From: an uncultured Gammaproteobacteria bacterium | Lineage (GTDB): Bacteria > Pseudomonadota > Gammaproteobacteria > QNFE01 > CAZPSE01 | Assembly: GCA_964589575.1 (NCBI GenBank) | Contig: CAZPSE010000002.1 | Location: 19,658 to 83,657 of the forward strand | DNA: 64,000 nucleotides | Direction of reading: 5' to 3' | Part shown: in pieces, positions 10,573 to 51,688 of the stretch | Numbering within the stretch: position 1 is the first letter of the stretch | How the letters are laid out: each line of letters starts with the position of its first letter | The notes under the pieces: model-generated | The model's database searches: none | Told to the model about the DNA's origin: nothing | The model's input: only the letters and a program-made list of their open reading frames with translations | Translations under genes and position numbers: made by a program

Positions 10573-12879
10573 ATGTTGTCACAATCAATTAAAACTTTAT
10601 CTATACTAATAAGCGCCGCTTTATTAAATTTTTCACAATTTGCTTTTGCAGAACAATTTGCAGAGGATGAACTGTTGCCTCCAGAGGTGGCCTTTAAAGC
10701 CACCGTTAAAGTTTTAGATAATCAAAATTTGCAAGTGACTTACAACATTGCCGATAAGTATTATTTATATAACAGCAAATTTCAATTTCGCTCTAATACA
10801 GACGGTGTAACCTTAGGCGATGCTGATATTCCAAAAGGCAAAAAGAAGGTCGATCCTTTTTTTGGCGAGGTACAAACACACCGCCAAAGTATAAAAATAA
10901 AACTCCCGTTTAAAAACAGTAACCAATCTAAAACATTAGAACTCATCGCCACCTCGCAAGGCTGTGCCGACATAGGTGTTTGTTACCCTCCCTACACGCA
11001 CACCTTATTGGTAGAGCTACCCAAACTGTCGGTAGTTGCAGACGTTACAGAACAAGCCGCCAACGCACTACAAACAGCGGGCAACGCGTTAAAATCTTTC
11101 GGGCTTAATTTTGGCCTAGAAGAGCAAAACGAAGTATTGCACCCAGATAAAGCATTTAAAGCCAGCGTAATAGAAAACAAAGGCGAAATATTTGTACGTA
11201 TGGATATTGTTGACCAGCACTATCTTTATCAAGACAAATTTAAATTTGAATTAATCAATGCCGACGGGTTTAGCCTTGGCGAAGCAAAATATTCACCATC
11301 CGAAGAAAAAGACGACCCATTTTTTGGCATCATTCAGGTTTATTATAATTCTGCAGATATTACCGTGCCGGTCATTGGCGGCACGGCAGTAACGCAAAAC
11401 GCACAAATTAGGGTTACTTACCAAGGCTGTTCAGAATCGTCTGGAATTTGTTATCCACCTCAAAAGAAAGTTTTTGATATAACGCTAACGCCCTCATCAA
11501 CCTCCGCTCCTATTACAAACGCATCATCTGTAAATACGCCTCCAGCCTCATCTACAAGTAGCAGTTCTGCCCCAGTAACGGAGCAAGACAAAATAGCCGC
11601 CAGCTTTTTTAGCAACAGTATTTACCTAACCTTACTTACCTTTTTCGGGTTAGGTTTATTACTCACCTTTACACCGTGCGTACTACCAATGATACCCATC
11701 CTGTCTAGCATCATTGTTGGCAGCGGTGAAAAAATATCAACCAAACGTGCTTTTAGTTTATCTTTAGCCTATGTGCTAGCAATGGCGTTTACCTACACAA
11801 CCGCAGGGGTGATAGTGGGTCTGCTGGGTATAAACGTTCAAGTTTGGTTTCAAGACCCCATCGTATTAAGTGTTTTTGCTGCGTTATTTGTATTGTTGTC
11901 GCTGTCCATGTTTGGTTTTTACGAGCTACAAATGCCCGCATCTATACAAGCTAAATTAACCGGTGTAAGTAATAACCAAAAAGCCGGGTCACTAAAAGGC
12001 GCGGCCATAATGGGCTTATTGTCAGCCTTAATTGTTGGCCCATGTGTTACCGCACCGTTAGTTGGCGCATTAATTTACATTGCAGAAACAGGTGATGCCG
12101 TATTTGGTGGTTTGGCCTTATTCTCGTTAAGTATGGGTATGGGTACACCACTGCTTATTGTTGGCACATCTGCAGGTAAACTATTACCCAAAGTTGGCGC
12201 TTGGATGGACGCAACCAAAGCCGTATTTGGTGTTATGTTACTAGCGATGGCCTTGTGGATGTTAGAACGCATATTACCGGTACAAACCATTATGGTTTTA
12301 ACCGCAATATTATTAATTGGCTCAGGCGTATACTCTGGCGCATTCGAAGCAATAGGCAAAAAATCTGGCTGGTCAAAACTGTGGAAAACAATAGGCATTG
12401 TAATGGTTTTATACGGAACCTTATTAATGATAGGCGCGCTGTCTGGCGGTAATAGCTTTTTTGCACCATTAAAAGGCACGTTTGGTTCTGGCGGTGGGCA
12501 ACAGTCTACTCAACTGGTTTTTGAACCCGTAAAAAGCATTGAAGATTTAAATAAAGCGTTAAAACAAGCCAAAGCAGAAAACCGCAACGTCATGTTAGAT
12601 TTTTACGCAGACTGGTGCATATCCTGCAAAGAAATGGAAGCCTACACCTTTAGTGATGCGCGCGTTAAACAAGCACTTGGCAATGCCGTTTTATTAAAAG
12701 CAGACGTAACTAAAAATGATGACCACGACCAAGCCTTACTAAAACATTTTGGTTTATTTGGCCCACCAGGCATTATTTTTTATAAAGCAGGAACAACAAT
12801 AGAAGAAAAAAACTATCGCGTAGTAGGCTTTATGGAAGCCAATAAATTTACCACCAACATTAACAACGCCTTTAAATAA
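10573..12879 (+). CDS. dsbD: Thiol:disulfide interchange protein DsbD with a tandemly duplicated N-terminal alpha domain
   Basis: 768 aa. Two alpha-domain copies each carry DPFFG plus a QGC-x5-CYPP cysteine pair (SQGCADIGVCYPP and YQGCSESSGICYPP). A Ser/Thr/Pro linker follows, then the TM beta domain (CVLPM...GPCVTAPL) and a C-terminal thioredoxin fold (WCISCK). Confidence 0.9.
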   Translation: MLSQSIKTLSILISAALLNFSQFAFAEQFAEDELLPPEVAFKATVKVLDNQNLQVTYNIADKYYLYNSKFQFRSNTDGVTLGDADIPKGKKKVDPFFGEVQTHRQSIKIKLPFKNSNQSKTLELIATSQGCADIGVCYPPYTHTLLVELPKLSVVADVTEQAANALQTAGNALKSFGLNFGLEEQNEVLHPDKAFKASVIENKGEIFVRMDIVDQHYLYQDKFKFELINADGFSLGEAKYSPSEEKDDPFFGIIQVYYNSADITVPVIGGTAVTQNAQIRVTYQGCSESSGICYPPQKKVFDITLTPSSTSAPITNASSVNTPPASSTSSSSAPVTEQDKIAASFFSNSIYLTLLTFFGLGLLLTFTPCVLPMIPILSSIIVGSGEKISTKRAFSLSLAYVLAMAFTYTTAGVIVGLLGINVQVWFQDPIVLSVFAALFVLLSLSMFGFYELQMPASIQAKLTGVSNNQKAGSLKGAAIMGLLSALIVGPCVTAPLVGALIYIAETGDAVFGGLALFSLSMGMGTPLLIVGTSAGKLLPKVGAWMDATKAVFGVMLLAMALWMLERILPVQTIMVLTAILLIGSGVYSGAFEAIGKKSGWSKLWKTIGIVMVLYGTLLMIGALSGGNSFFAPLKGTFGSGGGQQSTQLVFEPVKSIEDLNKALKQAKAENRNVMLDFYADWCISCKEMEAYTFSDARVKQALGNAVLLKADVTKNDDHDQALLKHFGLFGPPGIIFYKAGTTIEEKNYRVVGFMEANKFTTNINNAFK

Positions 12880-13174
12880 GACCAATTAACTCGCTAGAGC
12901 ATTGGCAGTATACTAATAGCGCTAAGCCTTGCTTGTTCACAGCTTTATCGTGAACTAGCAAGGCTTACCAAGCGGGCTATTAGAGCATTATAAAATAACG
13001 TTATCGTCTGCCGTTTATAAGCCTCGCTAGTTTTGACTAAATCGTCTGGAACGATTTGGGGAGCGATAGCGACGTGCTAAGCACCAAGGGCAGGAAGCCC
13101 GAAGCAAAAACACCAAAACGAGCAATGCTTAACGCTAAGAGTTTGAAAATGCCAGTTAATCCGGTCTTCCTTAA
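12873..13174. mobile_element. MITE-like repeat, copy 1 (~300 bp). The right TIR CCAGTTAATCCGGTCTTCCTTAA is intact and the left TIR is degenerate, overlapping the dsbD stop codon.
   Basis: Internal modules are shared with copies at 24482, 31889 and 42234. Contains a 50-nt stem-loop AAGCCTTGCT-t-GTTCAC-agctttatc-GTGAAC-t-AGCAAGGCTT. Confidence 0.7.
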
Positions 13175-13182
13175 ATAAACCG

Positions 13183-13209
13183 CATGAGCAAGCAAGGCTT
13201 GCTCATGCA
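13183..13209. repeat. Perfect 12-bp-stem hairpin GCATGAGCAAGC-aag-GCTTGCTCATGC, immediately 5' of the DUF692 gene
   Basis: Seen in sequence. Shares the AGCAAGGCTT core with the MITE hairpins. Confidence 0.6.
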
Positions 13210-13212
13210 ATA

Positions 13213-14070: not shown

Positions 14071-14863
14071 AACAACACTGCCCTTATTTCAGCAAAAACA
14101 ATACGAATTTACCGCCCATATACGCGACCCAAAAAACCATGCGCTACCAAAAAATGTAGAAGACCGACGCATGAATATTTACCGCGAGTTATTATTTAAT
14201 AACGTGGTCGAGTTTATAGGTAACGGGTTTCCCGTATTAAAAACCTTTTATAGTGAACAGCAATGGCTTAAAAATATACGATTATTTTATGCCCAATCAA
14301 ACAACCACTCTCCTTACTTTAAAGACATACCCGAGCAATACCTAACCTGGCTAGAAAGCCACTACCAAGTTAGCAACATCGACCCACCCTTTATGATGGA
14401 ATTAGCGCATTACGAATTAGTAGAGCTAATTTTAGATGTATCCGACGAGCATAATGATTTAGGCATAATAGATGCAAATGGCGACTTGTTAAATGAACGC
14501 CCTGTAATATCGTCTTTAGTTTGGCTACTAAACTACCAGTGGCCAGTACACTTATTAGATGCCCAGCAATACAACCCAACAAAAAAACCAGAACAACCCA
14601 GCTACCTAATTGTATTTAGAAACCGCAACGACAGCGTAGAGTTTGTAGAAAGCAACCCAGTAACCGCGCGCCTTTTAGAAATGCTACAAAATGACAACCA
14701 ACTAACAGGCCAACAAGCACTAACGCACATAGCAAAAGAAATGCAACACCCACAGCCAAAAGTTGTAATAGACGGCGGCTTACAAACATTACAAAACTTT
14801 CAAGAGCTGGGCATTATTTTAGGAACACAAATTTTAGATAATGACCAAATAAATAACCGCTAA
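14063..14863 (+). CDS. DUF2063-family (MbnC-like) partner protein
   Basis: 266 aa. Overlaps the DUF692 stop by 8 nt. The family assignment is from remembered N-terminal pattern. Confidence 0.7.
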   Translation: MAKTTLPLFQQKQYEFTAHIRDPKNHALPKNVEDRRMNIYRELLFNNVVEFIGNGFPVLKTFYSEQQWLKNIRLFYAQSNNHSPYFKDIPEQYLTWLESHYQVSNIDPPFMMELAHYELVELILDVSDEHNDLGIIDANGDLLNERPVISSLVWLLNYQWPVHLLDAQQYNPTKKPEQPSYLIVFRNRNDSVEFVESNPVTARLLEMLQNDNQLTGQQALTHIAKEMQHPQPKVVIDGGLQTLQNFQELGIILGTQILDNDQINNR

Positions 14864-14878
14864 AAAGCACCAAAACCG

Positions 14879-14938
14879 TTGCCTACATGGATGTAGGTAC
14901 ACAGAATTGCTTGGAGCATTATGCGTGCGACCCCTTGC
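14879..14938 (+). repeat. Family-B hairpin repeat, copy 1: TTGCCTACATGGATGTAGGTACACAGAATTGCTTGGAGCATTATGCGTGCGACCCCTTGC
   Basis: Near-identical copies, reverse-complemented, at 25411-25485 and 44227-44286. All three sit just 3' of + strand genes. Confidence 0.7.
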
Positions 14939-14949
14939 CTAAGCCTTCA

Positions 14950-15125
14950 TTAAGAAAATCCTGATTAACAGGCTAAAGCATGGTTTAAAATTTCATCTCG
15001 ACCAATGCGTGTAAGCATTGGCATTATACCAATAGCGCTAAGCCTTGCTTGTTCACAGCTTTATCGTGAACTAGCAAGGCTTAACGCTAATAGTTTGCAA
15101 CTCCAGTTAATCAGCACTTCCTTAT
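14950..15125. mobile_element. MITE-like repeat, copy 2 (176 bp). TIRs are TTAAGAAAATCCTGATTAACAGG and CCAGTTAATCAGCACTTCCTTAT.
   Basis: Both TIRs are present. Contains the GTTCAC/GTGAAC stem-loop module and lacks the GGGGAGCGATAGCGACGTG module. Confidence 0.7.
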
Positions 15126-15209
15126 AAAAACCAAACATTAAACATCATAAAACTTGTTCAAAGACGCTTACAATGAGAAAATGGTATTTTTCGTTTACTT
15201 CTAGGTTTT

Positions 15210-16859: not shown

Positions 16860-16901
16860 TGGTTAATGCTATTATTTTCACTATAATTAATAGCGTACAA
16901 T

Positions 16902-18133: not shown

Positions 18134-18147
18134 TTTATTACAGGCAT

Positions 18148-18177
18148 AAAAAAAGGCGTTAATAATAACGCCTTTTC
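18148..18177. terminator. Bidirectional rho-independent terminator (A-tract, GGCGTTA-ataat-AACGCC, T-tract) downstream of porin 1
   Basis: Seen in sequence. Confidence 0.6.
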
Positions 18178-24481: not shown

Positions 24482-24824
24482 TTAAGGAAGACCTGATTAA
24501 CTGGGCTTTCAAACTATTAGCGTTAAGCATTGCTCGTTTTGGTGCTTTTTCAAAACTAGCGAGGCTTACAAGCGGCAAGCGATAACGTTATCTGCTAATG
24601 CTCCAATAGCCCGCTTGATACTAATTTGTATGGAACAAATTGGGGAGCGATAGCGACGTGCGTAGCACCGAGGGTAGGATACCCGTAGCAACTAAGCCTT
24701 GCTAGTTCACGATAAAGCTGTGAACAAGCAAGGCTTAGCGCTATTAGTATCATTCCAATGCTTATGCACTGACCGAGGTTAAATTTTTAACCATGCTTTA
24801 GCCCGTTAATCAGGTCTTCCTTAA
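24482..24824. mobile_element. MITE-like repeat, copy 3 (343 bp, most complete). TIRs are TTAAGGAAGACCTGATTAACTGG and CCGTTAATCAGGTCTTCCTTAA.
   Basis: Both TIRs are present. Contains all three internal modules: the CAAAACTAGCGAGGC hairpin, the GGGGAGCGATAGCGACGTG module and the GTTCAC/GTGAAC stem-loop. Orientation is inverted relative to copy 1. Confidence 0.8.
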
Positions 24825-25405: not shown

Positions 25406-25410
25406 ACTAA

Positions 25411-25485
25411 GCAAGGGGTCGCACGCATAATGCTCCAAGCAATTCTGTGTACCTTGCCTACATGGAAGTAGGTACACCTGAATGC
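25411..25485 (-). repeat. Family-B hairpin repeat, copy 2 (reverse orientation)
   Basis: The reverse complement matches 14879-14938. Confidence 0.7.
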
Positions 25486-25525
25486 AGGATGCATAAAGAA
25501 GGTGACAATCCTTGTAGGCAACGAT

Positions 25526-26582: not shown

Positions 26583-26636
26583 ATAATTTTAAAACTTTTT
26601 AATCCTAAAATCTCACCTATTTTTTTCAATCACTAT

Positions 26637-26689
26637 TTTCAATAGGGTCAGAGTAATTGATTTTATCAATTACTCTGACCCTATTGAAA
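26637..26689. promoter_or_regulatory. Perfect palindrome with 25-bp arms, TTTCAATAGGGTCAGAGTAATTGAT-ttt-ATCAATTACTCTGACCCTATTGAAA, in the divergent DUF4124 / deaD intergenic region
   Basis: Seen in sequence. A 27-nt half-copy occurs at 17372-17398. Confidence 0.6.
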
Positions 26690-26776
26690 ATGGCACAAGA
26701 TAAGTATATTAAAGTTTTCTAACATAGATTATTGCAAACCTTTATAATGCGCGATTGCCTGCATTTTGAGCCACCC

Positions 26777-29733: not shown

Positions 29734-30717
29734 ATGACCACCTTAATAAAAAACGATTGGACTTTAGACGAAATTAACACCCTTTTTGCATTGCCTTTTA
29801 ATGATTTGTTATTTAAAGCGCACAGTATTCACCGCGAAAATTTTGACCCTAACGAAATCCAAATCAGTTCGTTATTGTCGATAAAAACCGGTGCCTGCCC
29901 AGAAGATTGCTCTTACTGCCCACAAAGCACCCACTACGATACCGGCTTAGAAAAAGAACGCTTGTTACCCGTTGCAGAGGTGGTGAAAGCGGCACGCATT
30001 GCTAAGGGCAACTGTTCGTCTCGGTTTTGTATGGGTGCCGCTTGGCGCAACCCTACCGATAAAAATTTAGATAAAGTTATCGAGCTAATACACGCTGTTA
30101 AAGCCGAGGGTATGGAAACCTGCGTAACGTTAGGCATGTTAAGCCCGCCACAAGCTAAAAAATTGTCCTTAGCTGGGTTGGATTATTACAACCACAATTT
30201 AGATACTTCGCTAGAATTTTACGGTCAAGTGATTACTTCTCGCACGTATGACGACCGTTTAAAAACGTTATCATCGGTACGTGATGCCGACATTAAAGTG
30301 TGCAGCGGTGGCATTATTGGCATGGGCGAAAAACCTCAAGACCGTTCTAGCATGTTGCAACAATTAGCCAACTTGCCAGAACACCCCCACTCTGTACCGA
30401 TAAATTTATTAGTACAGGTAGAAGGCACACCACTTTACGGTATAGATGAGTTAGACCCAATAGACTTTGCACGCACCATTGCCGTGGCGCGTATTATTAT
30501 GCCATTGTCTAAAGTGCGTTTATCTGCAGGGCGTACCGACATGACCGATGAACTGCAAGCCATGTGCTTTTTTGCTGGGGCTAATTCTATTTTTTATGGT
30601 GAAAAACTGCTAACTACAGAAAACCCAGAAACCAATAAAGATAAAGATTTATTTAGCAAACTGGGTTTAACCTACCAAAACCAAAACAGCCCTAAGGATA
30701 TGTGCATCCCAAGTTGA
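29734..30717 (+). CDS. bioB: Biotin synthase
   Basis: Radical-SAM motif [11 protein letters not shown]; 327 aa. Confidence 0.95.
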
Positions 30718-31877
30718 TGTCTGCTTTTGAACAACAACGCCGTTTATTACTGCAACAATTAAAAAAAGACCATGCTTATCGTTCTCGGCTAGTTTGTGCA
30801 TCACCGCAACAAAACCTGCAAAACATTGCAGGTAAAAACTGCATTAATTTTGCAGGTAACGACTATTTAGGTTTAGCCAATCACCCTTTAATTAAACAAG
30901 CCTTTAAGCAAGGGGTCGACGATTTTGGCGTAGGTAGCGGTGCTGCACATTTAATTAACGGTCACAGCCAAGCTCACCACGCTTTAGAGTTAGAGCTGGC
31001 GGAGTTTTGCAATCGGCCGCGGGCATTATTGTTTTCGTCGGGCTATATGGCTAACCTTGCGGTGCTTACCACGTTGTACAATAAAAACGTTACGGTGTTT
31101 CAAGACAAACTAAACCATGCATCATTAATAGATGCGGGGCAAAACAGCCAAGCCCAACTTAAACGTTACAAACACAAAGACCTTAACCACCTACAACAAC
31201 TTATTAACCTTAGCGACAACCCGCAACATGCCATCGTTACCGACGGTGTGTTTAGTATGGACGGCGACTTAGCACCCCTTAAAAACTTGGTCACCCTTGC
31301 CAAACAATACCAAGCCGAATTGATGATTGATGATGCCCACGGTTTTGGTGTATTGGGTAAAAACGGCGGTGGTATTTGTCAGCACCTAAACCTAAGTGTA
31401 AAAGACGTACCTATTTATATGGCCACCCTTGGTAAAGCCGTTGGGTGTTTTGGCGCATTTGTAGCAGGCAGCGAAACCTTAATAGAGACCTTAATAAATA
31501 ACGCACGGCAATACATTTTTACCACCGCCACCCCGCCAGCTTTGGCCCAAGCTGCACGGCAGAGCTTACAACTAATTAAAACCGAGCATTGGCGACGTGA
31601 AAAATTAAACGACAACATTGCTTACTTTAAACAATATTGCGCACAAGTTGGCGTTAATACCTTGCCATCAGACACGGCTATCCAACCCATTATTATTGCC
31701 GACAAAGAACACCTATTAACCACCAAACAAAACTTATTTAACAATGGTTTTTTAGTAGGCGCTGTCCGCCCGCCCACGGTTGCAAAAAATGCATCACGTT
31801 TACGCATAACCTTAAACACCAACCACGATGTTAACCAAATAAAAAAATTAGTTGAAATGCTAAGCGATTGTCTTTAA
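30702..31877 (+). CDS. bioF: 8-amino-7-oxononanoate synthase
   Basis: 391 aa PLP-dependent aminotransferase class II. Overlaps the bioB stop. Confidence 0.9.
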
Positions 31878-31888: not shown

Positions 31889-32138
31889 TTAAAGAGACTC
31901 TGATTAACTGGGTTTTTAAACTATTAGCGTTAAGCCTTGCTCGTTTTGGTGCTTTTTCAAAACTAGCGAGGCTTACGAGCGGCAAGTGATAACATTATTT
32001 GATATTGCTCCAATAGCCCGCTTGGTAAGCCTTGCTAGTTCACGATAAAGCTGTGAACGAGCAAGGCTTAGCGCTATTAGTATTGACCTAGGTTAAACTT
32101 TTAACCATGCTCTACCCAGTTAATCAGTTCTTCCTTAA
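31889..32138. mobile_element. MITE-like repeat, copy 4 (250 bp). TIRs are TTAAAGAGACTCTGATTAACTGG and CCAGTTAATCAGTTCTTCCTTAA.
   Basis: Both TIRs are present. Internal sequence is about 90% identical to copy 3 but lacks the GGGGAGCGATAGCGACGTG module. Confidence 0.8.
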
Positions 32139-32174: not shown

Positions 32175-33341
32175 TTGAAAGCCATTCTAAAATCACTCGT
32201 TTTTTGCCTTCTAGCGTCGACCCCTTGCTTTATTTGGGCGCAAGAAGCACAAAGTAATAGCTTTGCTGTGGAACTTACTAAGTGGCAAATAGCCAAGGGT
32301 GACACATTAAGTGATATAGCTCAAAAGTTACTACCCAACAATGCACCATTGCGCGAACAGCTTATGTACCAAATACTAGAGCTAAACCCCATCGCTTTCC
32401 CTACCAACAATATTGACTTTATGTTGGCATTTAATACGTTGTTTTTCCCCAGCGTTATTGACGGAATCAACATTAAACAGTTATTAAACAATCAAGTAAT
32501 ATCAATGGGCGATTTAAAAGACGCACCTTTATATGTTATGCCAACAACATTAAACATTGATAACAATAAAACAAACCGCTTTTATTCAATATCGGGCACC
32601 AATATAGAAACCGAATTAGACACGACTGCCACTGTGGCTTTGCATGGCTATAAGTATGTTACGGCAGGCAACCTAAGCGCTAAAGTGACCATTAACAATG
32701 GGCCGTCTTATTTACTAACGCCCAATACACGCATAAAAGTATCGCTACAAAATAACAATAATGAGCCATGCCAAGTAAACTTAATTTATGGTTTGTTGCG
32801 TGTTTTAGAGCGTGACGAACAAGCCAAACATTGCAGTATTTTGACACCATTAGCCAAAATAACAGCTAACAATAGTGCCTATATTGTACGGGTTTGCCAC
32901 CCAGGTAGTTGCATTATAGAGTCTGAAAAAAATGGTGAGTTCAGCTTACCTGCAGGTGTGTATTTTGGCGTAGTAGAAGGCAAAATTAGCCTAATAGACA
33001 AAACAAAACAATACCAAGTTGGCCTTGGCGAAATTAAATATTACTCCCCTAAAAACACAAAACCCTTAGCCATTAAACACTTTAAAGGTTTATTGTTTAA
33101 CAATACAGACTTACTTGCCATTAAAAATAACGCCCCTAAAAAGAAACAATTTGGCTGGGGAACCATACAAAACCACTCTCAAGATGACGGTTATATAGAG
33201 TCTCATTTAGATATTAAAACCGATTATTTGGCTACCGAACTTACAGAAGAAGTACAAATTATAGAGCAAGAAGTGCAAGAAGCAGAAACACTAAAAGATG
33301 AACCGTCAGATAACACATCCACATTGGATCGTTTTAATTAA
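32175..33341 (+). CDS. Secreted hypothetical protein with an N-terminal LysM-like motif
   Basis: Signal peptide followed by WQIAKGDTLSDIAQK (LysM-like). Confidence 0.45.
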   Translation: MKAILKSLVFCLLASTPCFIWAQEAQSNSFAVELTKWQIAKGDTLSDIAQKLLPNNAPLREQLMYQILELNPIAFPTNNIDFMLAFNTLFFPSVIDGINIKQLLNNQVISMGDLKDAPLYVMPTTLNIDNNKTNRFYSISGTNIETELDTTATVALHGYKYVTAGNLSAKVTINNGPSYLLTPNTRIKVSLQNNNNEPCQVNLIYGLLRVLERDEQAKHCSILTPLAKITANNSAYIVRVCHPGSCIIESEKNGEFSLPAGVYFGVVEGKISLIDKTKQYQVGLGEIKYYSPKNTKPLAIKHFKGLLFNNTDLLAIKNNAPKKKQFGWGTIQNHSQDDGYIESHLDIKTDYLATELTEEVQIIEQEVQEAETLKDEPSDNTSTLDRFN

Positions 33342-34066
33342 TGGCTTATTTTCGTATTGCACTTCGTTTAACGCTGCTATTTTTTCATATTAGTTATGCC
33401 ATCATTTTTTTAGCTTTTTATCCCAATTCCCCTGCAAATATTAGCCCCCGTCAGTGGTTACGCATTCAAAAATGGCACCAACGGTTACTTAGTATTTGTG
33501 GCATTAGCATTACCATAAAAGGGGCGTTTCAAAACACGCCTTGCTTAGTTATTGCCAACCACATATCGTGGATAGACATACCCGCTATAAGTTGCGTTGT
33601 ACCGACAGGTTTTGTCGCCAAGGCAGAAATTGCTAAATGGCCAGTAATAGGTTGGCTAACTAAAAAAACCGCCTGTATTTTTATAGAACGAGGGCGTACA
33701 GGTATTGTTGAGCAAATAAACCAAACCATTTCAAAACAAATACATTTTGGCGTAAATACCTTAGTTTTCCCCGAAGGTACAACCACTGACGGCAGTAAAA
33801 CCAAACGTTTTAATTACCGTTTATTTAAAGCGGTAGAACATAATAAACTGCCTGTACTGTTGCTAACCCTTAGCTACCCAAACTCACCCCATGCTAAGTT
33901 TGTTGGTGACATGACTTTTTTTAGTCATCTTATGGACGTACTAAAAGAACCAGAAACCCATGTGCAAATTAATATAACAGCAACAGTGCAAGAGAACTTA
34001 AACAGCAAAGACTATGCCCAATTTTGTGAACAAAAAATTAGTGATGAATTACAAAAGTTAAATTAA
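33341..34066 (+). CDS. Lysophospholipid / 1-acyl-sn-glycerol-3-phosphate acyltransferase (PlsC family)
   Basis: HxxxxD motif (NHISWIDI) and FPEGTT motif. Confidence 0.75.
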   Translation: MAYFRIALRLTLLFFHISYAIIFLAFYPNSPANISPRQWLRIQKWHQRLLSICGISITIKGAFQNTPCLVIANHISWIDIPAISCVVPTGFVAKAEIAKWPVIGWLTKKTACIFIERGRTGIVEQINQTISKQIHFGVNTLVFPEGTTTDGSKTKRFNYRLFKAVEHNKLPVLLLTLSYPNSPHAKFVGDMTFFSHLMDVLKEPETHVQINITATVQENLNSKDYAQFCEQKISDELQKLN

Positions 34067-34151
34067 TAATTTGTCTCGCTAGCTCACTCCGTTTAGAAAT
34101 GTATTTAGCGCACCTCAAAAAAGGCTTGTAGCGTCGACCCCTTGCTTTAAA

Positions 34152-34184
34152 AAGACCGATTAACTAACGTCAAGTCTTCCTTAA
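34152..34184. mobile_element. Miniature deletion derivative of the MITE family (AAGACCGATTAACTAACGTCAAGTCTTCCTTAA). Its terminal TTA is the stop codon of the DUF2889 gene.
   Basis: Matches the two ends of the 51518-51688 copy, which shares the GATTAACTAACGT stretch. Confidence 0.5.
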
Positions 34185-34747
34185 CCTTCCCCATTGGGCC
34201 GTTTATAATACTGTGGCCAAAAGTCTTTTACTACTTGGCTTGCATCGTCAAACGTATGGCATGTATTTAAAAAAGGCGGTTTACGCGTTTCACTATTGTC
34301 TTTGTTTTTACTGGCATATTGTCCACCATAAATGGTCTGAAAGGCGACAGTTGCAATCGGTTTTAATAACTCATTTAAGTGTGTACAGCCGTTTATGCCA
34401 CCGGTTATTTTGCGTACTTTTCTACTCCAACCTGGGGCAATTTGTATGCCTTTTAATTTTGAAAACTGTTGATTAATTTGCGGACACATGGCAAACGGGC
34501 TGCTGTCTATTGACGCATAACATTGATGAATGATCATTTTTTTATCAACCGTTATCCTTAGCCACATATCGTGCAAATAATCGCCTGCTACAATAAAGCC
34601 ACCACGGTCTTTATTTGCAAAGGTAAACGGTTTTTGGTCGGTCATGTGCGCGTCTATATCCCACAAGCCGTCGTCCCTTTGGTAACCCTTAACGTCTATT
34701 TGACGATGGTGGCTTAATTGACGAGCATTAGCAGGCGGTAATGGCAT
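34181..34747 (-). CDS. DUF2889-family protein
   Basis: 188 aa; the family assignment is from remembered sequence. Confidence 0.45.
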   Translation of the reverse strand: MPLPPANARQLSHHRQIDVKGYQRDDGLWDIDAHMTDQKPFTFANKDRGGFIVAGDYLHDMWLRITVDKKMIIHQCYASIDSSPFAMCPQINQQFSKLKGIQIAPGWSRKVRKITGGINGCTHLNELLKPIATVAFQTIYGGQYASKNKDNSETRKPPFLNTCHTFDDASQVVKDFWPQYYKRPNGEG

Positions 34748-41144: not shown

Positions 41145-41163
41145 AATGAAATAATATAAACGG

Positions 41164-42233: not shown

Positions 42234-42468
42234 TTAAGAAAACCTGATTAACTGAGTTAAAGCAGAGTTAAAAATTTAACCTTGGTTTATGCATAAATAT
42301 TGGCATTATAGTAATAGCGTTAAGCTTTGCTAGTTTTGACTAAATCGTCAGGAACGATTTGGGGAGCGATAGCGACGTGCGAAGCACCGAGGGCAGGAAG
42401 CCAGAAGCAAAAACACCTAAACGTGCAAGGCTTAACGCTATTATTTTGAATAACTCCAGTCCTTCAAT
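42234..42468. mobile_element. MITE-like repeat, copy 5. The left TIR TTAAGAAAACCTGATTAACTGAG is intact and the right TIR is degenerate (CCAGT--CCTTCAAT).
   Basis: Contains the GGGGAGCGATAGCGACGTG module shared with copies 1 and 3. Confidence 0.65.
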
Positions 42469-42951
42469 ATTTTCTTTAATGCGTACACCAATATGAAGCA
42501 AATATGCCTATTAAATGCGGTTTATTGGTATAAAAAAACTTGGCAAGATTGTACCAAGGGCTTTATAGCTATTTTATTAAAAAAACACTAAAAAAAGAGT
42601 TGACACGTTTTTTATTCCACACAAAAAAAGAATAACGAATAGAAAAATAAAAACGTGACTTAGTTCTCACTAAATTTAGCATTAATTTTATAAGCCAATG
42701 ATTACATTGAAGTTTTTAAAGTGGTCAAAAAATGACACTTTTGTATTTTCGGCTTTTGTAGCGTCCTTATAAGTGCTTATTAAATTGTTTTACACAGAGT
42801 TTTCCACAGCTTATGTGGATAAACTAAATTACCCTTTAACAACAACACTTTAGCTCATTATGGTGATTAATTGCTCATCAAATCGTTGTAACTACATTAC
42901 AATTTCATAATATAATAATGCTCTACTAAAAAACCGCTAAAGCCCCTATAA

Positions 42952-44199: not shown

Positions 44200-44226
44200 G
44201 GCATCTTTAAGGTTTTACAAACAAGG

Positions 44227-44286
44227 GCAAGGGGTCGCACGCATAATGCTCCAAGCAATTCTGTGTACCTACATCCATGTAGGCAA
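44227..44286 (-). repeat. Family-B hairpin repeat, copy 3 (reverse orientation)
   Basis: About 98% identical to the reverse complement of 14879-14938. Confidence 0.7.
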
Positions 44287-44316
44287 CGATTTTAGTGTTT
44301 TTTGAGGGTATTATTT

Positions 44317-45615
44317 TTAATTCGATAAATCAAAATTATAGTTAAGGCTTACATCCAAACGGTCGAACTTACTTATTGCGTTAAGAAAAACGTCTGACCC
44401 TGTTGAGTTGATGATGCTTAGTTGCGTAGTAACCGTCCACTCATCATCTAACTTGTAGGTTAAGCCAGCGCGTATTAAATGGTTATCAATATTGTTGCCC
44501 AGTACCAGTAAAACCACATTGGCACTTAGGTCGTCTTTTAAAAATTGGTCGCTCCACGTAACTGCTGTAACTTTAGACCCTTCGCCAGCCAATACCGCGT
44601 TGTCATCCGTCACGGGTGACTCGCCCGACATTTCTACAATCCAATTACCAAAGGTTTTGTGAGAATAGTCAAAACCTGCCATTATTTTATAACTGTTGTT
44701 ATTTTTAACACCATTAAAGCTTAATAACTGCATGGGTTTGTCTTTTATAAACAAGCCTTCTAGTTTCCATAAAAATGGATCGGCAGAATATACTAAACCT
44801 AAACCGGCTACTGGGTTTTTTAAATAGGTTTGTTCATGGTTAATAATTAAAGGGTCTCGCTGATGCACGTCACCCACTACGGCAGAGTATTCCCATTTAT
44901 CAAAAACTTGGTTTAGCCGTATTGCCCATTCGGCATTGTTATCACTAACATTGTTGGGAGACTGTGGCACGACATTGTACGGATGCCCCGCCTCTATTTG
45001 GCTATTATTAAGTGCTTGCGGTACAACAATAAAATTCATTTCTTTATTGCCACTATACCAATCGAGTTTGATTACGTTTTGCCCTACTTTAATTTCTTCT
45101 GGTTTGGCAAATAATGATGCCGAGTTATCTACGGGGCTGATAATGTCGATAATGGTTGATAAGTCGGCCTTGCCCCAAGTTACAATGCTTTTGCCTACGG
45201 TAAGTGTTTTATCGCCAAAGGCTTTTTTCCAATACAGTTCGCGTACCACGGGGTCTAGTTGGTAGCGGTTTTGTACTGCTTGGCTGTCACCCTCTATTTT
45301 AAACGCATAGTTATTGCGAATGGTAAGCTCGCCATAAAACTGCCCGTAATGGGTTTGTTTGTCGGCAATTAATTGTGCGTAGGGGCCTGCTGTTATCCAA
45401 CGTTTTGGTGAGTCTATTTGATAACCCAAATCAAAACTAAGTTTACCCCTTAATGGAAAACCTAGCTGTTCTTGTTCAATAAAAACATCATCAAACTCAA
45501 AGCTCACTTCGGTATTTTGAAGCGTTTCTTCTACAGAAAATTCTACTTCTATTTGCTGTGCATTTAGGTTTAAAGAAAAACAAATAAAGGTTATATAAGT
45601 AAACAGTTTAATCAT
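44317..45615 (-). CDS. Secreted, beta-rich hypothetical protein, candidate outer-membrane component of the upstream RND system
   Basis: Signal peptide. Last gene of the TetR-RND-LolA-like operon. Confidence 0.4.
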   Translation of the reverse strand: MIKLFTYITFICFSLNLNAQQIEVEFSVEETLQNTEVSFEFDDVFIEQEQLGFPLRGKLSFDLGYQIDSPKRWITAGPYAQLIADKQTHYGQFYGELTIRNNYAFKIEGDSQAVQNRYQLDPVVRELYWKKAFGDKTLTVGKSIVTWGKADLSTIIDIISPVDNSASLFAKPEEIKVGQNVIKLDWYSGNKEMNFIVVPQALNNSQIEAGHPYNVVPQSPNNVSDNNAEWAIRLNQVFDKWEYSAVVGDVHQRDPLIINHEQTYLKNPVAGLGLVYSADPFLWKLEGLFIKDKPMQLLSFNGVKNNNSYKIMAGFDYSHKTFGNWIVEMSGESPVTDDNAVLAGEGSKVTAVTWSDQFLKDDLSANVVLLVLGNNIDNHLIRAGLTYKLDDEWTVTTQLSIINSTGSDVFLNAISKFDRLDVSLNYNFDLSN

Positions 45616-45641
45616 AAAATTTTGATAACAGGCAAGCGTAG

Positions 45642-46517: not shown

Positions 46518-49113
46518 TTTCTGCCTTAATTTTTGCTATTTCTTTTTCAAAAGGTTTAAACACGTAAATCATCGCGGGTAATAATAAAATATCCGCTAGC
46601 AGTGCGGTAAACATGGCAATGGCCGCCAAAATACCAAAGTTAGATAAACCTTGATGCACCGATAGTAAAAACACTAAAAAGCCCAATGATAAAACGATAG
46701 AGGTATACACCATCGCTTGCCCCACATGTTTAAGGCTAGACTTAATAGCCTGTTTAGAATTTTTGCCACTTAATAACTCGGTTCGGTAGTGGGTTAAAAA
46801 GTGAATAGAGTCATCTACCGCAATGCCTATGGCTAGGGGCATCACCAGTAAGGTGTCCATGTCTAACGCAATGCCTGCCCAACCGGTTACCCCCATAAGC
46901 ATAATAATAGGGAATATATTGGGCACCATCGCCATCGCACCAAATTTTAATGAGCCAAATATCAGCAATAACAACACGGCAATAACCGCAATAACCAACA
47001 CGTACGATTTGACTTGAGCGTTAGATATAAACTCCATCATGGTCATCATTAACGGCACACTACCGGTTACCGATGTTTTAAAGTCGGGGTTTTGTGCGCG
47101 TATGTCGGCAAAACTTTCATCCATCCAAACATTTATTTCTTCGGTAAATGTGGCGTATTGTGTCGACCCCTTGGTTAGTACACTTATGGTTAAACGGGCT
47201 ACTTGCCATTCGTCATCTACAAACAGTTTTCGGGTGGCACTGTCTGCCGACTCAAAACTAAACAAGGTTTGCGATAGCACATCGGGGTCGTTTGGAATAA
47301 TGTAGTTTTCACCACTGCCATCGGTCATATTTTGATACGAGCGTTTAGCCAGTTTGACTACCGAATCTACTTTACTCACTAAGTCGGGTCGGCCATTGAG
47401 GATTTTTTGCTCTAAAACATCAATCGCTTTTAGTAGTTGTGGGTTTTTAATACCGTCAGGCGAGCCTGAATCTATCAATATCTCAGCTGTTGATGTGCCA
47501 CCAAAATTACCATCAATTTCACGCAAAGCCAAACGCAAACCGGGGCCTTCTTTAATCATGGTGGTAATGTTGGTGTCTATAAACACTTTAGGAATACCTG
47601 CTAAACCAATGGCACTTACGACTATAAAAATAAAAATAATGCGTTTGGGGTAATTTAACCCCCAATCATAAATAACCATTAAGCCGTCTTGCAATTTTTG
47701 GTCAATAGGGCGTATTTTAATTTCACCCGACTTACTGGTAACTTTAGGTGCCCAGTAATGCATACCTACTGGCAAGTAAATAAGGGTTAATACAAACGTT
47801 ACCACCACACTGGTGGCGGCAAAACCTGCAAATGCTTGAATAGGTGCAATGGGCACCACCAACATAGATAACATACCGGCAATGGTTGTAATGGCCGCCA
47901 ATAGTATTGGTAAGCCTGTTTTACGCATGGTTTTACGCATCGCGTCTTGATGTTCTAAACCGCCTTGACGGTACTGTTTATAACCCGATAAAATATGAAT
48001 AGAGGCTGCAATGCCGACCGTTAATATTAAAAATACTATAATATTAATTAGCATATTTACCGCAATACCGCTCCAACCGATTAATCCAAGCGTCCAAATA
48101 ATACCCACACCAACAATAACAGTTGGCCAAATCATACCCGGTAAAGAGCCAACCACTAACCATAAAACAGCCAAAATAAGCACCATAGATAACACCGAGT
48201 ACATAGCCATTTCTTGCAGAACAACTTTATTAAAAAAGTCCATCATCCACGGGTTACCAACGGCTAAATAACCCATTGCTCCTGCATCTGGCGTTAGGCC
48301 TTTTTGCCAGTTTTGTTCTTTTAATACCACTCTAAATGCGGCCATAAAGTCGCTAAATTCTGGCATTCCTGGTGTTTCAAATTTAGGTATCTCTTTGGGG
48401 TCTAAACTTAACCCAGACGGTCTATCTATTACCGCATCAAAATCAAAACTTAATTCATCATCTATTACTATTTTAGCTAAGTTACCACCATCGTTAATTT
48501 CTTCGGTATTTTTTAATCGCGAACCGTAATCGGTTTGAATCATCATTATGCCAAGGGTAGAATCTTTAGAAAACATTCTGCCCGCATAATCATCTTCCTC
48601 TAGTGCCAACTTTCTAATCAACTCTACTTCTGCCGCACTTTTGGGTATGTTATTTTTACCAATAAATTTTCTATTAATCAGTGCATCATCAGTTGTTTCT
48701 AAATAATCGGCAGAGTAAATGCTACGAACTCGGGTAATTCTATTGAGTTCAGAATCTGCTTTAACGCGCTCTTTATTTAGCGCGTCTTCTAAATTTTTTA
48801 CTAAATTTAAACTCTCGGCACTAAACACATCCCCGTCAGAGGGCTTAAACATCATTATTAAAAACTGATCGCCACCAAATAAAAAGTGAAACACATCGTA
48901 AGAATGTAAAGCAGGGTCGTCGGTATTAAAAAATGCCTCCATCGACATATCTAATTTAATACGCGGTATGCCCGCCATAAAAAAAAGGGTTAATAGCAAC
49001 AAAGAAAGCACTAATTTTTTTGCATGCTTTACAGAAAAATCGGGGATTTTCTCCATCGTATTGGTAATACCCGTTAGTACCTTATTTACTTTAGATATAA
49101 ATGTATTGGCCAT
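46498..49113 (-). CDS. RND-superfamily exporter of the HAE3/MMPL type
   Basis: 871 aa with two bundles of TM helices, each preceded by a large periplasmic loop. Confidence 0.8.
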   Translation of the reverse strand: MANTFISKVNKVLTGITNTMEKIPDFSVKHAKKLVLSLLLLTLFFMAGIPRIKLDMSMEAFFNTDDPALHSYDVFHFLFGGDQFLIMMFKPSDGDVFSAESLNLVKNLEDALNKERVKADSELNRITRVRSIYSADYLETTDDALINRKFIGKNNIPKSAAEVELIRKLALEEDDYAGRMFSKDSTLGIMMIQTDYGSRLKNTEEINDGGNLAKIVIDDELSFDFDAVIDRPSGLSLDPKEIPKFETPGMPEFSDFMAAFRVVLKEQNWQKGLTPDAGAMGYLAVGNPWMMDFFNKVVLQEMAMYSVLSMVLILAVLWLVVGSLPGMIWPTVIVGVGIIWTLGLIGWSGIAVNMLINIIVFLILTVGIAASIHILSGYKQYRQGGLEHQDAMRKTMRKTGLPILLAAITTIAGMLSMLVVPIAPIQAFAGFAATSVVVTFVLTLIYLPVGMHYWAPKVTSKSGEIKIRPIDQKLQDGLMVIYDWGLNYPKRIIFIFIVVSAIGLAGIPKVFIDTNITTMIKEGPGLRLALREIDGNFGGTSTAEILIDSGSPDGIKNPQLLKAIDVLEQKILNGRPDLVSKVDSVVKLAKRSYQNMTDGSGENYIIPNDPDVLSQTLFSFESADSATRKLFVDDEWQVARLTISVLTKGSTQYATFTEEINVWMDESFADIRAQNPDFKTSVTGSVPLMMTMMEFISNAQVKSYVLVIAVIAVLLLLIFGSLKFGAMAMVPNIFPIIMLMGVTGWAGIALDMDTLLVMPLAIGIAVDDSIHFLTHYRTELLSGKNSKQAIKSSLKHVGQAMVYTSIVLSLGFLVFLLSVHQGLSNFGILAAIAMFTALLADILLLPAMIYVFKPFEKEIAKIKAENEKITN

Positions 49114-49119
49114 TTTTTC

Positions 49120-49734
49120 CTATCTTTTATTTTCATTATTGACGAATAAGGCAATCATCAAAATAAAATCTTCTGTAATTTGAGTAAATCGTTTTTTATT
49201 GGGGTCTATTAAGTAGTGCTGACACAATCCAATAAAGTGCATGTCTATCATGTATGCCAAACTGTTTGTTTTTTGTTCATCAAAGCCGTTAGGCAACAGT
49301 GGTTTTAAATAATTTGCCCACGTTGCTACATTGTTTTTGCACATGCTTTTAAAACGCGTCATTGTTTCTGGCTTATTTCTAGACTGATCCATAAACGACA
49401 GCAATGCGGTAAACACTTCGGGGCTTTGTTCTATAAACTTAAAAGCAAACGCTAAAGAAAACCGAATATAATTTTCGTAAGAATCAAACTGCTCTTTACT
49501 TGCTTGCTGGTTAAAGCCTGCAATAATCGAGTCTAAAATATAAATATAAAAGTCTTCTATTTGTGCAAAATGATGAAAAAAAGTACTTTTACTTAGCCCC
49601 GCTTGTTTAGCAATATTTGCCGCACTTAATGACTTAACCCCACCGTCTTTTAACAAAACAAAGGCTGCCATTAATAATTTTTGTTGTGATTGTTGGGCTT
49701 TGGTCAATTTTGGCATTCGGCAAGAATAAAACAA
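49120..49734 (-). CDS. TetR/AcrR-family transcriptional regulator
   Basis: N-terminal HTH (LSAANIAKQAGLSKSTFFHHF). Confidence 0.85.
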   Translation of the reverse strand: MFYSCRMPKLTKAQQSQQKLLMAAFVLLKDGGVKSLSAANIAKQAGLSKSTFFHHFAQIEDFYIYILDSIIAGFNQQASKEQFDSYENYIRFSLAFAFKFIEQSPEVFTALLSFMDQSRNKPETMTRFKSMCKNNVATWANYLKPLLPNGFDEQKTNSLAYMIDMHFIGLCQHYLIDPNKKRFTQITEDFILMIALFVNNENKR

Positions 49735-49890
49735 ACCGACCGGTCGGTCAATAAGGTTTTATATATTCAAGCTACAAACAATTAATAAGATGCCCCATAA
49801 TAATACACACACTAAATAAATGTAGCAAAGCTACAAATAAAGCGTTAAAATTGCGGGTTCTGTTAAATATTTACATCATTTGGACAAAAT

Positions 49891-50172
49891 ATGGCACGCG
49901 TTACGGTAGAAGATTGTTTAGAGCAAGGCATTGGACGTTTTGATTTGATTTTAGTTGCGGCTAAAAGAGCACGCCAAATAGCTAACGGCGCAGACCCTTT
50001 AATCCCTTCTAATGGTGATAAAGCAACCGTTATCGCCTTGCGTGAAATTGCAGAAGGTTTAATTGGCGCAGACTTTTTAGAAGAAGAAGATAAAACCACC
50101 GATGATGCATTAACCGCCTTTTTAGAAGAAGAAGCAGCATTAGCTAAAGAAGCATCTCCAGCTGTAAGTTAA
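49891..50172 (+). CDS. rpoZ: DNA-directed RNA polymerase omega subunit
   Basis: [30 protein letters not shown] is a near-canonical RpoZ N-terminus. Confidence 0.9.
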
Positions 50173-50177
50173 CTCTA

Positions 50178-50203
50178 TTGGGCTTAATTTCTTATTAAGC
50201 CCA
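50178..50203 (+). terminator. Hairpin TTGGGCTTAAT-ttc-TTATTAAGCCCAA after rpoZ, with a weak U-tract
   Basis: Seen in sequence. Confidence 0.35.
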
Positions 50204-50299
50204 AGCACCTCATGTTTTCGGTTTATTTTCCCTTTCTTTTTTTTAATCGAACAAAACCTTTACCCCTTTTTTTAGTTTTCCCTATTTATAAACAAAATA

Positions 50300-51493
50300 A
50301 TGGTGCCTAAAAAATACAATGTTGTCATTATTGGCGGTGGCGCAGCCGGTTTAATGTGTGCCATTAGCGCAGGCAGCCGTGGTAAAAGCGTAGTGGTTTT
50401 AGACCATGCCAAACAAGTTGGCAGTAAAATATTAATGTCGGGCGGTGGCCGTTGTAACTTTACCAATTACAATATTGAGCCCAGTAACTACCTTTCTCAC
50501 AACCCTCACTTTTGTAAATCTGCACTTAGCCGTTACAGCCAGTGGGATTTTATTGCCTTGGTCGAAAAACACAACATTGCCTATCACGAAAAAACCTTAG
50601 GGCAATTATTTTGCGACAATAAAGCAAAAGATATTTTAAACATGCTTTTAGACGAATGCGCGCAAAACAAGGTAAGCATCGACACCAAATGCAGTATAGA
50701 AAAAGTCATTAAATTGGATAATGGTTACCAAATAGTCACCTCAAAAGGTGACTATTTGTGCCAATCTTTAGTGGTATCTACGGGTGGTTTATCTATACCG
50801 ACCATGGGTGCAACAGGTTTGGGTTATCAAATTGCACAACAGTTTGGTCATACACTTTATCCACGTACCCCAGCTTTAGTGGCGTTTACCTTAAACCCTA
50901 AAATGCTTAAAGACTTTAACGGTTTGTCTGGCACATCCATCAGTGCAATTGTTTCTTGCAATAATCAACGTTTTAAAGAAAATATTTTGCTTACCCATCG
51001 TGGTATTAGCGGCCCTGCCATTTTACAAATATCTTCTTACTGGCAAGCAGGTGATGCTATTACTATTAATTTATTACCCAGCAATGATATTTATTCGGTT
51101 TTAAAATCGGCTCAAAACCACTCGCCAAACAGTCAATTAAATACCTTATTGAATGCTTTTTTTAGTAAAAAGCTAAGCTTAACGTTTTGCCAATTGTGGT
51201 TTAGCAGTTTTTATCTAAAAGCCATTGCACAAGTAACAGACAACGACATAAAAAAGGTTGCCGAGCAATTACATAACTGGACATTTAAACCTGCAGGGAC
51301 AGAAGGTTACAGAAAAGCAGAAGTAACGCTTGGCGGTGTCAACACTGATGAAATTTCGTCTAAAACCTTTGAAAGCAAACACGCCAATGGGTTATATTTT
51401 ATTGGCGAGGTATTAGACGTTACAGGCCATTTAGGTGGCTATAACTTCCAATGGGCTTGGGCATCTGCCGATGCAGCAGGGCAAGCAGTGTAG
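50300..51493 (+). CDS. HI0933/YhiN-like FAD-dependent flavoprotein (aminoacetone-oxidase family)
   Basis: N-terminal VVIIGGGAAGLMCA Rossmann motif and a GGGRCN motif. Confidence 0.85.
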   Translation: MVPKKYNVVIIGGGAAGLMCAISAGSRGKSVVVLDHAKQVGSKILMSGGGRCNFTNYNIEPSNYLSHNPHFCKSALSRYSQWDFIALVEKHNIAYHEKTLGQLFCDNKAKDILNMLLDECAQNKVSIDTKCSIEKVIKLDNGYQIVTSKGDYLCQSLVVSTGGLSIPTMGATGLGYQIAQQFGHTLYPRTPALVAFTLNPKMLKDFNGLSGTSISAIVSCNNQRFKENILLTHRGISGPAILQISSYWQAGDAITINLLPSNDIYSVLKSAQNHSPNSQLNTLLNAFFSKKLSLTFCQLWFSSFYLKAIAQVTDNDIKKVAEQLHNWTFKPAGTEGYRKAEVTLGGVNTDEISSKTFESKHANGLYFIGEVLDVTGHLGGYNFQWAWASADAAGQAV

Positions 51494-51517
51494 GTTTAAA
51501 CTTTATGCTTACATAAT

Positions 51518-51688
51518 TCTGATTAACTAACGTGTCATCTGGCAGCGCCAAGTAGGGCAATCTTTCAAGCACGCATCTACTTCGTTAAGTTCCTTATCAA
51601 TGGAATAACCATTAACTGCGAAACTTGCCTTGCATATACATGCTTGAAAAATTACAGATGATGCGCTAGTTAATCAGGGTTTCCTTAA
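51518..51688. mobile_element. MITE-like repeat, copy 6 (divergent internal sequence). The right TIR CTAGTTAATCAGGGTTTCCTTAA encodes the last 7 codons plus the stop of the MBL gene.
   Basis: Terminal repeats match the family consensus. The internal sequence is unrelated to copies 1-5. Confidence 0.6.

Follow-up and report, generated by a model that had tools for sequence, protein, structure and literature searches.

Stop codons beside MITE termini in a gammaproteobacterial contig: gene-end overlaps as a probable consequence of insertion at xTAA sites

A 64-kb stretch of contig CAZPSE010000002.1 from an uncultured gammaproteobacterium (the window, by which we mean the whole of the DNA analyzed) contains eight copies or fragments of a family of miniature transposable elements with inverted repeats (MITEs), three of which touch the 3′ end of a gene: dsbD, a DUF2889 gene, and a gene for a metallo-β-lactamase (MBL)-fold, sulfur/persulfide dioxygenase-like protein. 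An earlier note on this DNA proposed that the element termini supply the stop codons, and some C-terminal codons, of these genes. The positions it gave are exact (dsbD stop, 12877-12879; DUF2889 stop, 34181-34183; MBL VKETLIN*, 51666-51689), and its suggestion of insertion into TTAA at or near natural stops agrees with direct repeats that flank related elements elsewhere, with a dsbD orthologue that carries the TTAA (gcc tTT AAg taa), and with a DUF2889 orthologue whose stop lies inside a TTAA. Our reading, to which we assign a probability of roughly 0.8, is that MITEs inserted at AT-rich xTAA sites and that the gene-end overlaps are an ordinary consequence of target choice and selection.

Copies were placed from repeat tables and all-against-all blastn. 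The family terminus TTAAGGAAGACCTGATTAACTGG occurs at seven sites with no more than three mismatches, versus none in 100 shuffles. Element ends read GGAAG(A/G)(A/C)CTGATTAAC...GTTAATCAG..CTTCC, with TTAA at both ends of copies 1, 3, 4, and 5. Copies 1 to 5 have internal modules as well as the terminal inverted repeat (TIR) in common; copies 6 and 7 and a mini element have the TIR alone in common by blastn. With TIRs shared by multiple dispersed copies, target-site duplications flanking those TIRs, and sizes of 30-345 bp with no element-owned open reading frame (ORF) of at least 80 aa in any copy, the family has the properties of MITEs. Its members are as follows.

12872-13174 including the TTAA ends: copy 1, with internal modules and TIR
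12872-12875: copy 1 left TTAA target duplication, within the dsbD Phe-Lys codons
12876-13170: copy 1 body, with degenerate left TIR ATAAGACC-AATTAAC against the consensus GGAAGACCTGATTAAC
13171-13174: copy 1 right TTAA duplication, followed by ATAAACC, presumed to be the original sequence after the dsbD Lys codon
14950-15125: copy 2, TTAA ... TTAT, intergenic, with internal modules and TIR
24482-24824: copy 3, in the gap between two divergent gene starts; it has kept its structure best (0 and 1 TIR mismatches, both ends TTAA)
31889-32138: copy 4, starting 12 nt past the stop of an aminotransferase gene (30717-31877)
34151-34180: mini element remnant AAAGACCGATTAACTAACGTCAAGTCTTCC, right end good (14/15), left end decayed
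42234-42479: copy 5, TTAA at both ends, right TIR decayed, between divergent gene starts
About 51512-51688: copy 6, TIR only, far side decayed
51512-51597: copy 6a, a second decayed unit with left core CTGATTAACTAACG and right end ...GTTAAGTTCC TTAT, boundaries inferred
51602-51684: copy 6b, adjoining the MBL gene, with TIRs GGAATAACC-ATTAACTGCG and GGAAACCCTGATTAACTAGCG, whose ends pair in the fold
52842-52864, + strand: copy 7, a solo TIR with one mismatch and TTAA, between divergent gene starts
53012-53024: a second partial TIR beside copy 7, in the same orientation

Judged by eye, copy 6 may be two tandem units of ~85 bp (51512-51597 and 51602-51684). Rfam gave no match in the window, a literature search by exact TIR sequence variants found no paper, and a metagenome scan for the A end of copies 1 to 5, which used a pattern of 26 bases for an end conserved no worse than the B end, gave no match. 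The family looks undescribed.

Whether the TTAA belongs to the element or to the host bears directly on who supplies a stop codon, and a palindrome such as TTAA leaves TIR and duplication indistinguishable within the window. We scanned one genome per species with the pattern AAGGAAGNNCTGATTAAC and obtained at least 113 loci, many of them chance hits and the host genome not among them, the pattern being too unspecific for 596 Gb. About 34 of the 113 listed loci have a second, inverted TIR within 400 bp. We defined the element as GGAAG...CTTCC and then scored the 4 bp outside it as direct repeats. Among the matches listed, same-TIR elements are flanked by CTAA/CTAA (L017, L029, L035, L055, L069, L092), ATAA/ATAA (L054, L102), TAAA/TAAA (L031, L053, L106), and TTAA/TTAA (L034, L036, L038, L047, L077, L096, L116). 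Concordant direct repeats that are not palindromic have no other explanation than target-site duplication. Insertion therefore copied host sequence to give the TTAA of the window. Judging by these repeats, the TTAA beside the elements is duplicated host target, not element sequence.

The DUF2889 gene shows the simplest relation to an element.

34181-34747, - strand: DUF2889 gene, 188 aa, ending GGT TAA, convergent with an acyltransferase gene (33341-34066)
34181-34184: TTAA beside the mini element, of which 34181-34183 is the DUF2889 stop on the minus strand

This TTAA abuts ...GTCAAGTCTTCC, a 14/15 match to the family right end. In the relative at L010, the DUF2889 stop and the convergent acyltransferase stop lie in one common TTAA, so that relatives do have a TTAA with an embedded stop at this locus. 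The stop is most likely the gene's own, kept by duplication, and here the idea that the terminus supplies it does not hold, the TAA being duplicated host target; the predicted pre-insertion site is a single TTAA in ...ggtTTAA.... At L126, a further relative, the DUF2889 protein (P0361, 86% identical) ends ...YYQEKK* and the spacer is 39 nt long with no element; other relatives end ...FAKKD* (P0122) and ...FYQKKKE* (P0123), and the window protein ends ...YYKRPNGEG*. The tail KRPNGEG differs from those of relatives; it lies upstream of the element, is not encoded by it, and belongs to a stretch variable across the family. The left boundary of the mini element is uncertain, being either TTAA 34147-34150 or, for a larger unit, TTAA 34063-34066. 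In the latter case the whole 114-bp spacer (34067-34180) would be one element bounded by TTAA 34063-34066 and 34181-34184, and each convergent gene would have its own stop. We did not adopt this reading, since its left end has no TIR and an unrelated GTCGACCCCTTGC repeat lies inside, and we keep it as a second candidate.

At the dsbD end the element has decayed in a way that appears to have preserved the protein.

10573-12879, + strand: dsbD, 768 aa, last codons gcc ttt aaa TAA, stop at 12877-12879

Pfam places DsbD_N, DsbD_TM, and thioredoxin domains on P0241, which is identical to the window DsbD. The stretch 12872-12893 (TTAAATAAGACC-AATTAACTCG) has 18 of 23 bases in common with the family terminus TTAAGGAAGACCTGATTAACTGG and continues into a 300-bp repeat copy, so that the dsbD stop occupies TIR positions 2-4, with TAA where the TIR has GAA (GGAA now ATAA). 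P0242, the nearest orthologue, with 77% identity across the C-terminal 459 residues, ends ...KAFK* where the window protein ends ...NAFK*; its DNA, at locus L008, reads gcc ttt aag taa with no element downstream, and a TTAA spans the same Phe-Lys codons, in the last two codons before the stop. The TTAA is thus native to these codons and the stop stands at its ancestral position. On this comparison DsbD is not remodelled, its end ...AFK* being that of its closest orthologue, and the terminus supplies its stop in a weaker sense only. Insertion would have left the open frame ttt aag gaa gac ctg..., which now reads ttt aaa TAA gac c. A G-to-T change at TIR position 2 would have recreated the stop at its old place, presumably under selection, and a second change, G to A, would be synonymous (AAG to AAA). 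The right flank of copy 1 reads TTAAATAAACC, which fits an original ...tTT AAA TAA acc..., and the predicted pre-insertion site is a single TTAA in ...gcc tTTAAataaacc.... An 8-bp duplication of TTAAATAA for copy 1 was considered and set aside as less parsimonious, the duplication being 4 bp at every other copy and in all relatives.

Two hairpins lie near these dsbD ends. In the relative, at L008 3372-3425, 13 nt past the dsbD stop, a hairpin GGAAAACCTGATAAAAG...TATCAAAAGGTTTTCC stands before a T-run; the arms are TIR-like (GGAAGACCTGAT), which leaves two readings, a terminator and a decayed mini element. In the window, between copy 1 and the next gene (13179-13211), there is a hairpin with a 15-bp stem, GCATGAGCAAGCAAGGCTTGCTCATGC, whose core AGCAAGGCTTGCT resembles the internal hairpin module of copies 1 to 4 (TAAGCCTTGCT...AGCAAGGCTTA).

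The MBL gene is the only one of the three in which the host ORF runs in frame into the element and element-free orthologues are shorter; neither DsbD nor DUF2889 shows this.

51666-52370, - strand: MBL-fold sulfur/persulfide dioxygenase-like gene, 234 aa from MKIEQ (P0001), the ORF being open to 52409
51685-51688: TTAA beside copy 6, within the Val-Lys codons (gTT AAg)
51666-51680, - strand: TIR-encoded tail ACC CTG ATT AAC TAG (TLIN and stop)

On the minus strand, 51689-51666 reads GTT AAG GAA ACC CTG ATT AAC TAG, that is, TTAA followed by GGAAACCCTGATTAACTAG, a TIR with three mismatches. Most MBL orthologues are 230 aa long; the closest end GLVKE* (P0002, 85%; gtc aaa gag taa in L001 and L128) and the next closest GLEKE* (P0004; L002). 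As the orthologues end VKE*, the V, K, and E of the window protein are ancestral, and the last seven codons, which the earlier note took to be encoded entirely by the TIR, are new only from TLIN to TAG. Remodelling of host C-termini, as that note envisaged it, is accordingly limited to these four residues: the orthologue comparison it called for finds the same end for DsbD, a shorter end for MBL, and for DUF2889 a different tail that is variable in the family and upstream of the element. Likewise, a TTAA that overlaps the stop is seen at the DUF2889 locus of L010, and the TTAA of the dsbD orthologue lies just before the stop instead. For MBL the stop does come from the terminus, as a TIR-borne TAG.

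At the MBL end, Lys would have been kept automatically (AA plus G) and Glu because the TIR supplies GAA; the old stop would have been lost and translation would continue through ACC CTG ATT AAC to the TAG at the inner edge of the TIR variant. The other end of copy 6 and the mini element read TAA where the MBL end has TAG, and the MBL stop may be a feature of the TIR variant rather than a later mutation. The TLIN tail is presumably neutral. The predicted pre-insertion site is ...ggtttggTTAA..., then the ancestral stop. As to where that stop now lies, the reverse complement of 51494-51507, beyond copy 6 (ATAAAGTTTAAAC), matches the relative's GTAAGGTTTAAGT at 9 of 13 positions, a hint only, as MAFFT did not align the two; the gene could conceivably have ended VKHKV* before the insertion.

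The surroundings of the MBL gene also vary. Orthologues P0003, P0005, P0007, and P0009 (74-78% identical) are 345-348 aa long, with an N-terminal rhodanese domain fused to the MBL fold, and in the window and other relatives a separate rhodanese gene (52390-52710, - strand) lies directly upstream, which indicates gene fusion or fission within this clade. Just downstream of the same-orientation TIR fragments 52842-52864 and 53012-53024, a C-terminal GGDEF diguanylate cyclase remnant (53062-53237, + strand; PF00990, 30.6 bits, profile positions 112-161 of 161) gives the impression of a gene cut short in connection with the elements.

We propose that a DDE-type cut-and-paste transposase would make a 4-bp staggered cut at an AT-rich xTAA, which in this AT-rich host genome would be TTAA, and that insertion would duplicate the 4 bp. 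Insertions within genes would be purged, and because TAA is the usual stop (41 of 55 ORFs in a simple gene set for the window, 17 of the 41 preceded by T), many surviving insertions would lie on or beside stop codons. The outcome would then be set by the reading frame relative to TTAA followed by GGAAGACCTGATTAAC. In the frame xxT TAA the duplicated target would retain the gene's own stop and leave the protein unchanged, as for DUF2889. In the frame TTA AGG AAG ACC TGA a TIR stop would follow four codons later, adding a short TIR-encoded tail, for which the window has no example. In the frame xTT AAG GAA GAC CTG ATT AAC there would be no stop and the gene would read into the element, as for DsbD and MBL. 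A further TAA stands at TIR body positions 13-15 in the first frame. The same mechanism would give three outcomes by frame only: an unaltered protein (DUF2889), a stop that arises anew in the TIR (dsbD), and a four-residue tail (MBL). In the listed matches from other genomes, where ORFs were counted crudely (stop to stop, at least 100 codons), ORFs end eight times at offset -3, in the duplication TAA, twice at the TIR TGA (offset 8), and twice at the TIR TAA (offset 12).

Several observations weigh against this reading. An autonomous element or a transposase with the same TIR was found neither in the window nor in the 113 listed loci of other genomes, and the transposase type proposed above is suggested by the resemblance of the TIR and duplication to those of known elements only. 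A strain-level empty site was not found for any of the three insertions, and because the closest relatives are 77-86% identical in protein sequence, the pre-insertion sequences are reconstructions. The dsbD junction TTAAATAA also occurs at the right flank of copy 1 (13171-13178), and the junction would be explained equally well by two point changes, by local gene conversion from that flank, or by an atypical end. No duplication or outer TIR is recognizable on copy 6 at its far side (51508-51518), nor is the left end of the mini element recognizable. Finally, the scan pattern required AA before GGAAG, so that its sample covers targets with a final AA and leaves the full target spectrum (e.g., xTAG) outside. 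Assembly artefacts, on the other hand, do not account for the mini element/DUF2889 junction or the TLIN tail: the former is also present in L127, an independent assembly of a near-identical strain, and the 234-aa MBL product with its TLIN tail is listed by two sources.

If insertion is tolerated only outside gene interiors, the expectation for gene ends can be counted. The window has 845 TTAA sites; outside elements, 632 lie inside genes, 15 overlap a stop, 13 lie in the last five codons, 1 overlaps a gene start, and 137 are intergenic. Of the 166 tolerated sites, those not interior to genes, 28 (~17%) are at a stop or in the last five codons, compared with three of eight elements that touch a gene end (binomial P 0.14-0.16, no significant excess). 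The gene-end pattern in the window needs no special explanation. In the other genomes, eight of 34 listed elements are placed precisely at a TAA stop, some two-fold more than expected; for those outside long ORFs it is eight of 19, versus 3.7 expected from per-locus backgrounds (Poisson-binomial P ~0.012). Purifying selection would by itself produce a two-fold excess, promoter-side sites being more harmful than those just past a stop, and because the ORF calls are crude we treat it as a lead only.

Among the listed loci L017-L122 (for example L034 5689-5747, L054, L069 3433-3715, and L032 7413-7465), the terminus GGAAGnnCTGATTAAC is found again, on short TIR-TIR elements of 37-290 bp that all have 4-bp xTAA duplications. 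Their hosts, among the matches listed, include Spirochaetes, Waddliaceae, Acidobacteria, Nitrosomonas, Methylococcaceae, and many gammaproteobacterial metagenome-assembled genomes. It is tempting, though in our view unlikely to be right, to see in them one orphan MITE superfamily of very wide distribution (Spirochaetes, Chlamydiae, Acidobacteria, Nitrosomonas, Methylococcaceae, and many Gammaproteobacteria, with no partner transposase in the 113 listed loci) that homes to TAA stops beyond target availability through its xTAA duplication. If so, stop duplication would let these elements colonize compact genomes with the upstream gene paying nothing. A TIR and xTAA duplication found in many phyla with no visible transposase are, in any case, a modest lead for cataloguers of bacterial mobile elements.

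A related proposal, that the TIR is shaped for translation safety and that insertion is actively steered to stop codons and not just tolerated at them, draws on the same eight of 19 elements and on the TIR itself: two of its three inward frames are closed within five codons, and the copy 6 and mini variants close the third as well (AAC TAA or AAC TAG). We nevertheless think it unlikely. The window has no excess, five of its eight copies lie away from gene ends, and the excess elsewhere, besides coming from small numbers and crude ORF calls, is what purifying selection predicts where promoter-side intergenic sites are costlier than sites past a stop; moreover, the TGA and TAA in CTGATTAAC may serve transposase binding, not translation.

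Quite unlikely, too, is that the element hairpins persist at gene 3′ ends because they terminate transcription or stabilize mRNA, which would make the overlaps functional domestication and not a target-site by-product. TIR pairs do form hairpins, many of the listed relatives elsewhere are bare 37-48-bp TIR-TIR hairpins, the hairpin with TIR-like arms and a T-run lies 13 nt after dsbD in L008, and MITE effects on neighboring transcripts have been described for Correia/NEMIS elements (PMC2229807). However, copies 3, 5, and 7 each stand where two gene starts diverge, the mini element and copy 6 gain no fold stability over shuffled sequence (z 0.07, -0.92, 0.00), and on the dsbD strand no terminator-like site was called inside copy 1.

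piggyBac elements are eukaryotic, TTAA-specific transposons. Like them, the window elements have TTAA at both ends, and nearly every element end in the window reads TTAA; were this palindrome the outermost part of a piggyBac-like TIR, the stops would truly be element-supplied, and window copies alone would leave the matter undecidable. We regard this as very unlikely: piggyBac termini are unlike those of the window elements, the target is not strictly TTAA, as elements with the same TIR carry CTAA, ATAA, or TAAA at both ends as direct, not inverted, repeats, and the dsbD orthologue already has the TTAA at the site with no element present. That the TIR resemblance at the three gene ends is mere coincidence, for which one can say that AFK (DsbD) and VKE (MBL) are ancestral, so that part of the match to TTAAGGAA could be native, has a next to negligible chance of being right, because the matches continue 18-23 nt into full repeat copies and orthologous loci have no 300-bp, 170-bp, or 114-bp insert.

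The reading of insertion at xTAA sites is most easily placed beside IS5. The ends of Escherichia coli IS5, confirmed as GGAAGGTGCGAATAAG...CTTCC, begin with GGAAG and end with CTTCC as the window family does, and the TIR agrees in part with the 16-bp IS5 TIR type GGAAGGTGCGAATAAG, at 10 of 14 specified bases, the GGAAG tip included. IS5 duplicates the target 5′-YTAR-3′ (PMC5009759); its 4-bp duplication at an AT-rich xTAx, with TTAA and CTAA among the YTAR sites, recalls that of the window elements. We took this rule from that source, as two E. coli IS5 copies that we inspected lie in rearranged contexts with no matching duplications. Unlike the YTAR rule, same-TIR elements also have ATAA and TAAA duplications, in a sample whose pattern forced the final AA; and unlike IS5, the window elements are 30-345 bp long and non-coding, with no IS5-type DDE transposase (Pfam DDE_Tnp_1) found beside any copy. 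TIR pairs 1.1-3.4 kb apart (L024, L050, L057, L069, L086, L099, L116) were considered as autonomous elements and rejected, as they enclose ordinary genes and no transposase, and the Waddliaceae loci have no transposase between TIR pairs. These comparisons suggest a family that is IS5-like in its way of working, not a proven IS5 derivative.

Overlap of MITEs with gene ends is already known. In Coxiella burnetii, QMITE1 and QMITE2 share 1-50 bp with the 3′ ends of functional genes, and a 33-residue C-terminal extension of EnhC is MITE-encoded in one strain, where in another the stop precedes the same insert, according to the passages of PMC5896051 drawn on here. On that account the phenomenon is the same as in the window MBL and dsbD cases, although the QMITE sequences are unrelated to the window family, the window extensions are much shorter (0-4 residues), and those passages describe no 4-bp xTAA duplication coinciding with a stop (PMC5896051). 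In-frame fusions of bacterial MITEs to ORFs have also been reviewed by Delihas (PMC2229807). Correia/NEMIS, ERIC, and RUP elements are, like the window family, small, TIR-bounded, and AT-rich, have TA at their ends, and duplicate their target; most lie between genes, in-frame fusion to an ORF occurs at times, and some have stops in all frames (PMC2229807). Correia elements, unlike the window family, duplicate TA and carry an IHF site, and the GGAAGnnCTGATTAAC terminus is on none of Correia/NEMIS, ERIC, RUP, or the other MITEs reviewed there (PMC2229807). The findings in the window leave knowledge of how MITEs affect genes unchanged; what is specific here is that the xTAA duplication makes the stop itself the insertion site and preserves it. 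For annotation, a gene that ends beside one of these elements usually keeps its own stop, and a short TIR-encoded tail of the KE(D/T)LIN kind is an insertion artefact, not a conserved protein feature.

The window also holds repeats of other kinds. A second, unrelated short repeat with the core GTCGACCCCTTGC forms REP-like hairpins near gene ends (1002-1042, 6753-6820, 30880-30929, 32196-32229, 34113-34146, 47146-47176, and 56189-56222); one lies inside the DUF2889/acyltransferase spacer, and a similar one is found at the same locus in a relative (L011, about 3655-3700). A third repeat of ~93 nt, 89-98% identical between copies and containing GCAAGGGGTCGCACGCATAATGCTCCAAGCAATTCTGTGTACCT, stands at 14847-14939, 25408-25494, and 44226-44318; the first adjoins copy 2, and the remaining two are at other gene ends. 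Lastly, a perfect 27-nt inverted repeat with a 3-nt spacer (26635-26691) lies upstream of an ORF that starts at 26732 or 26747.

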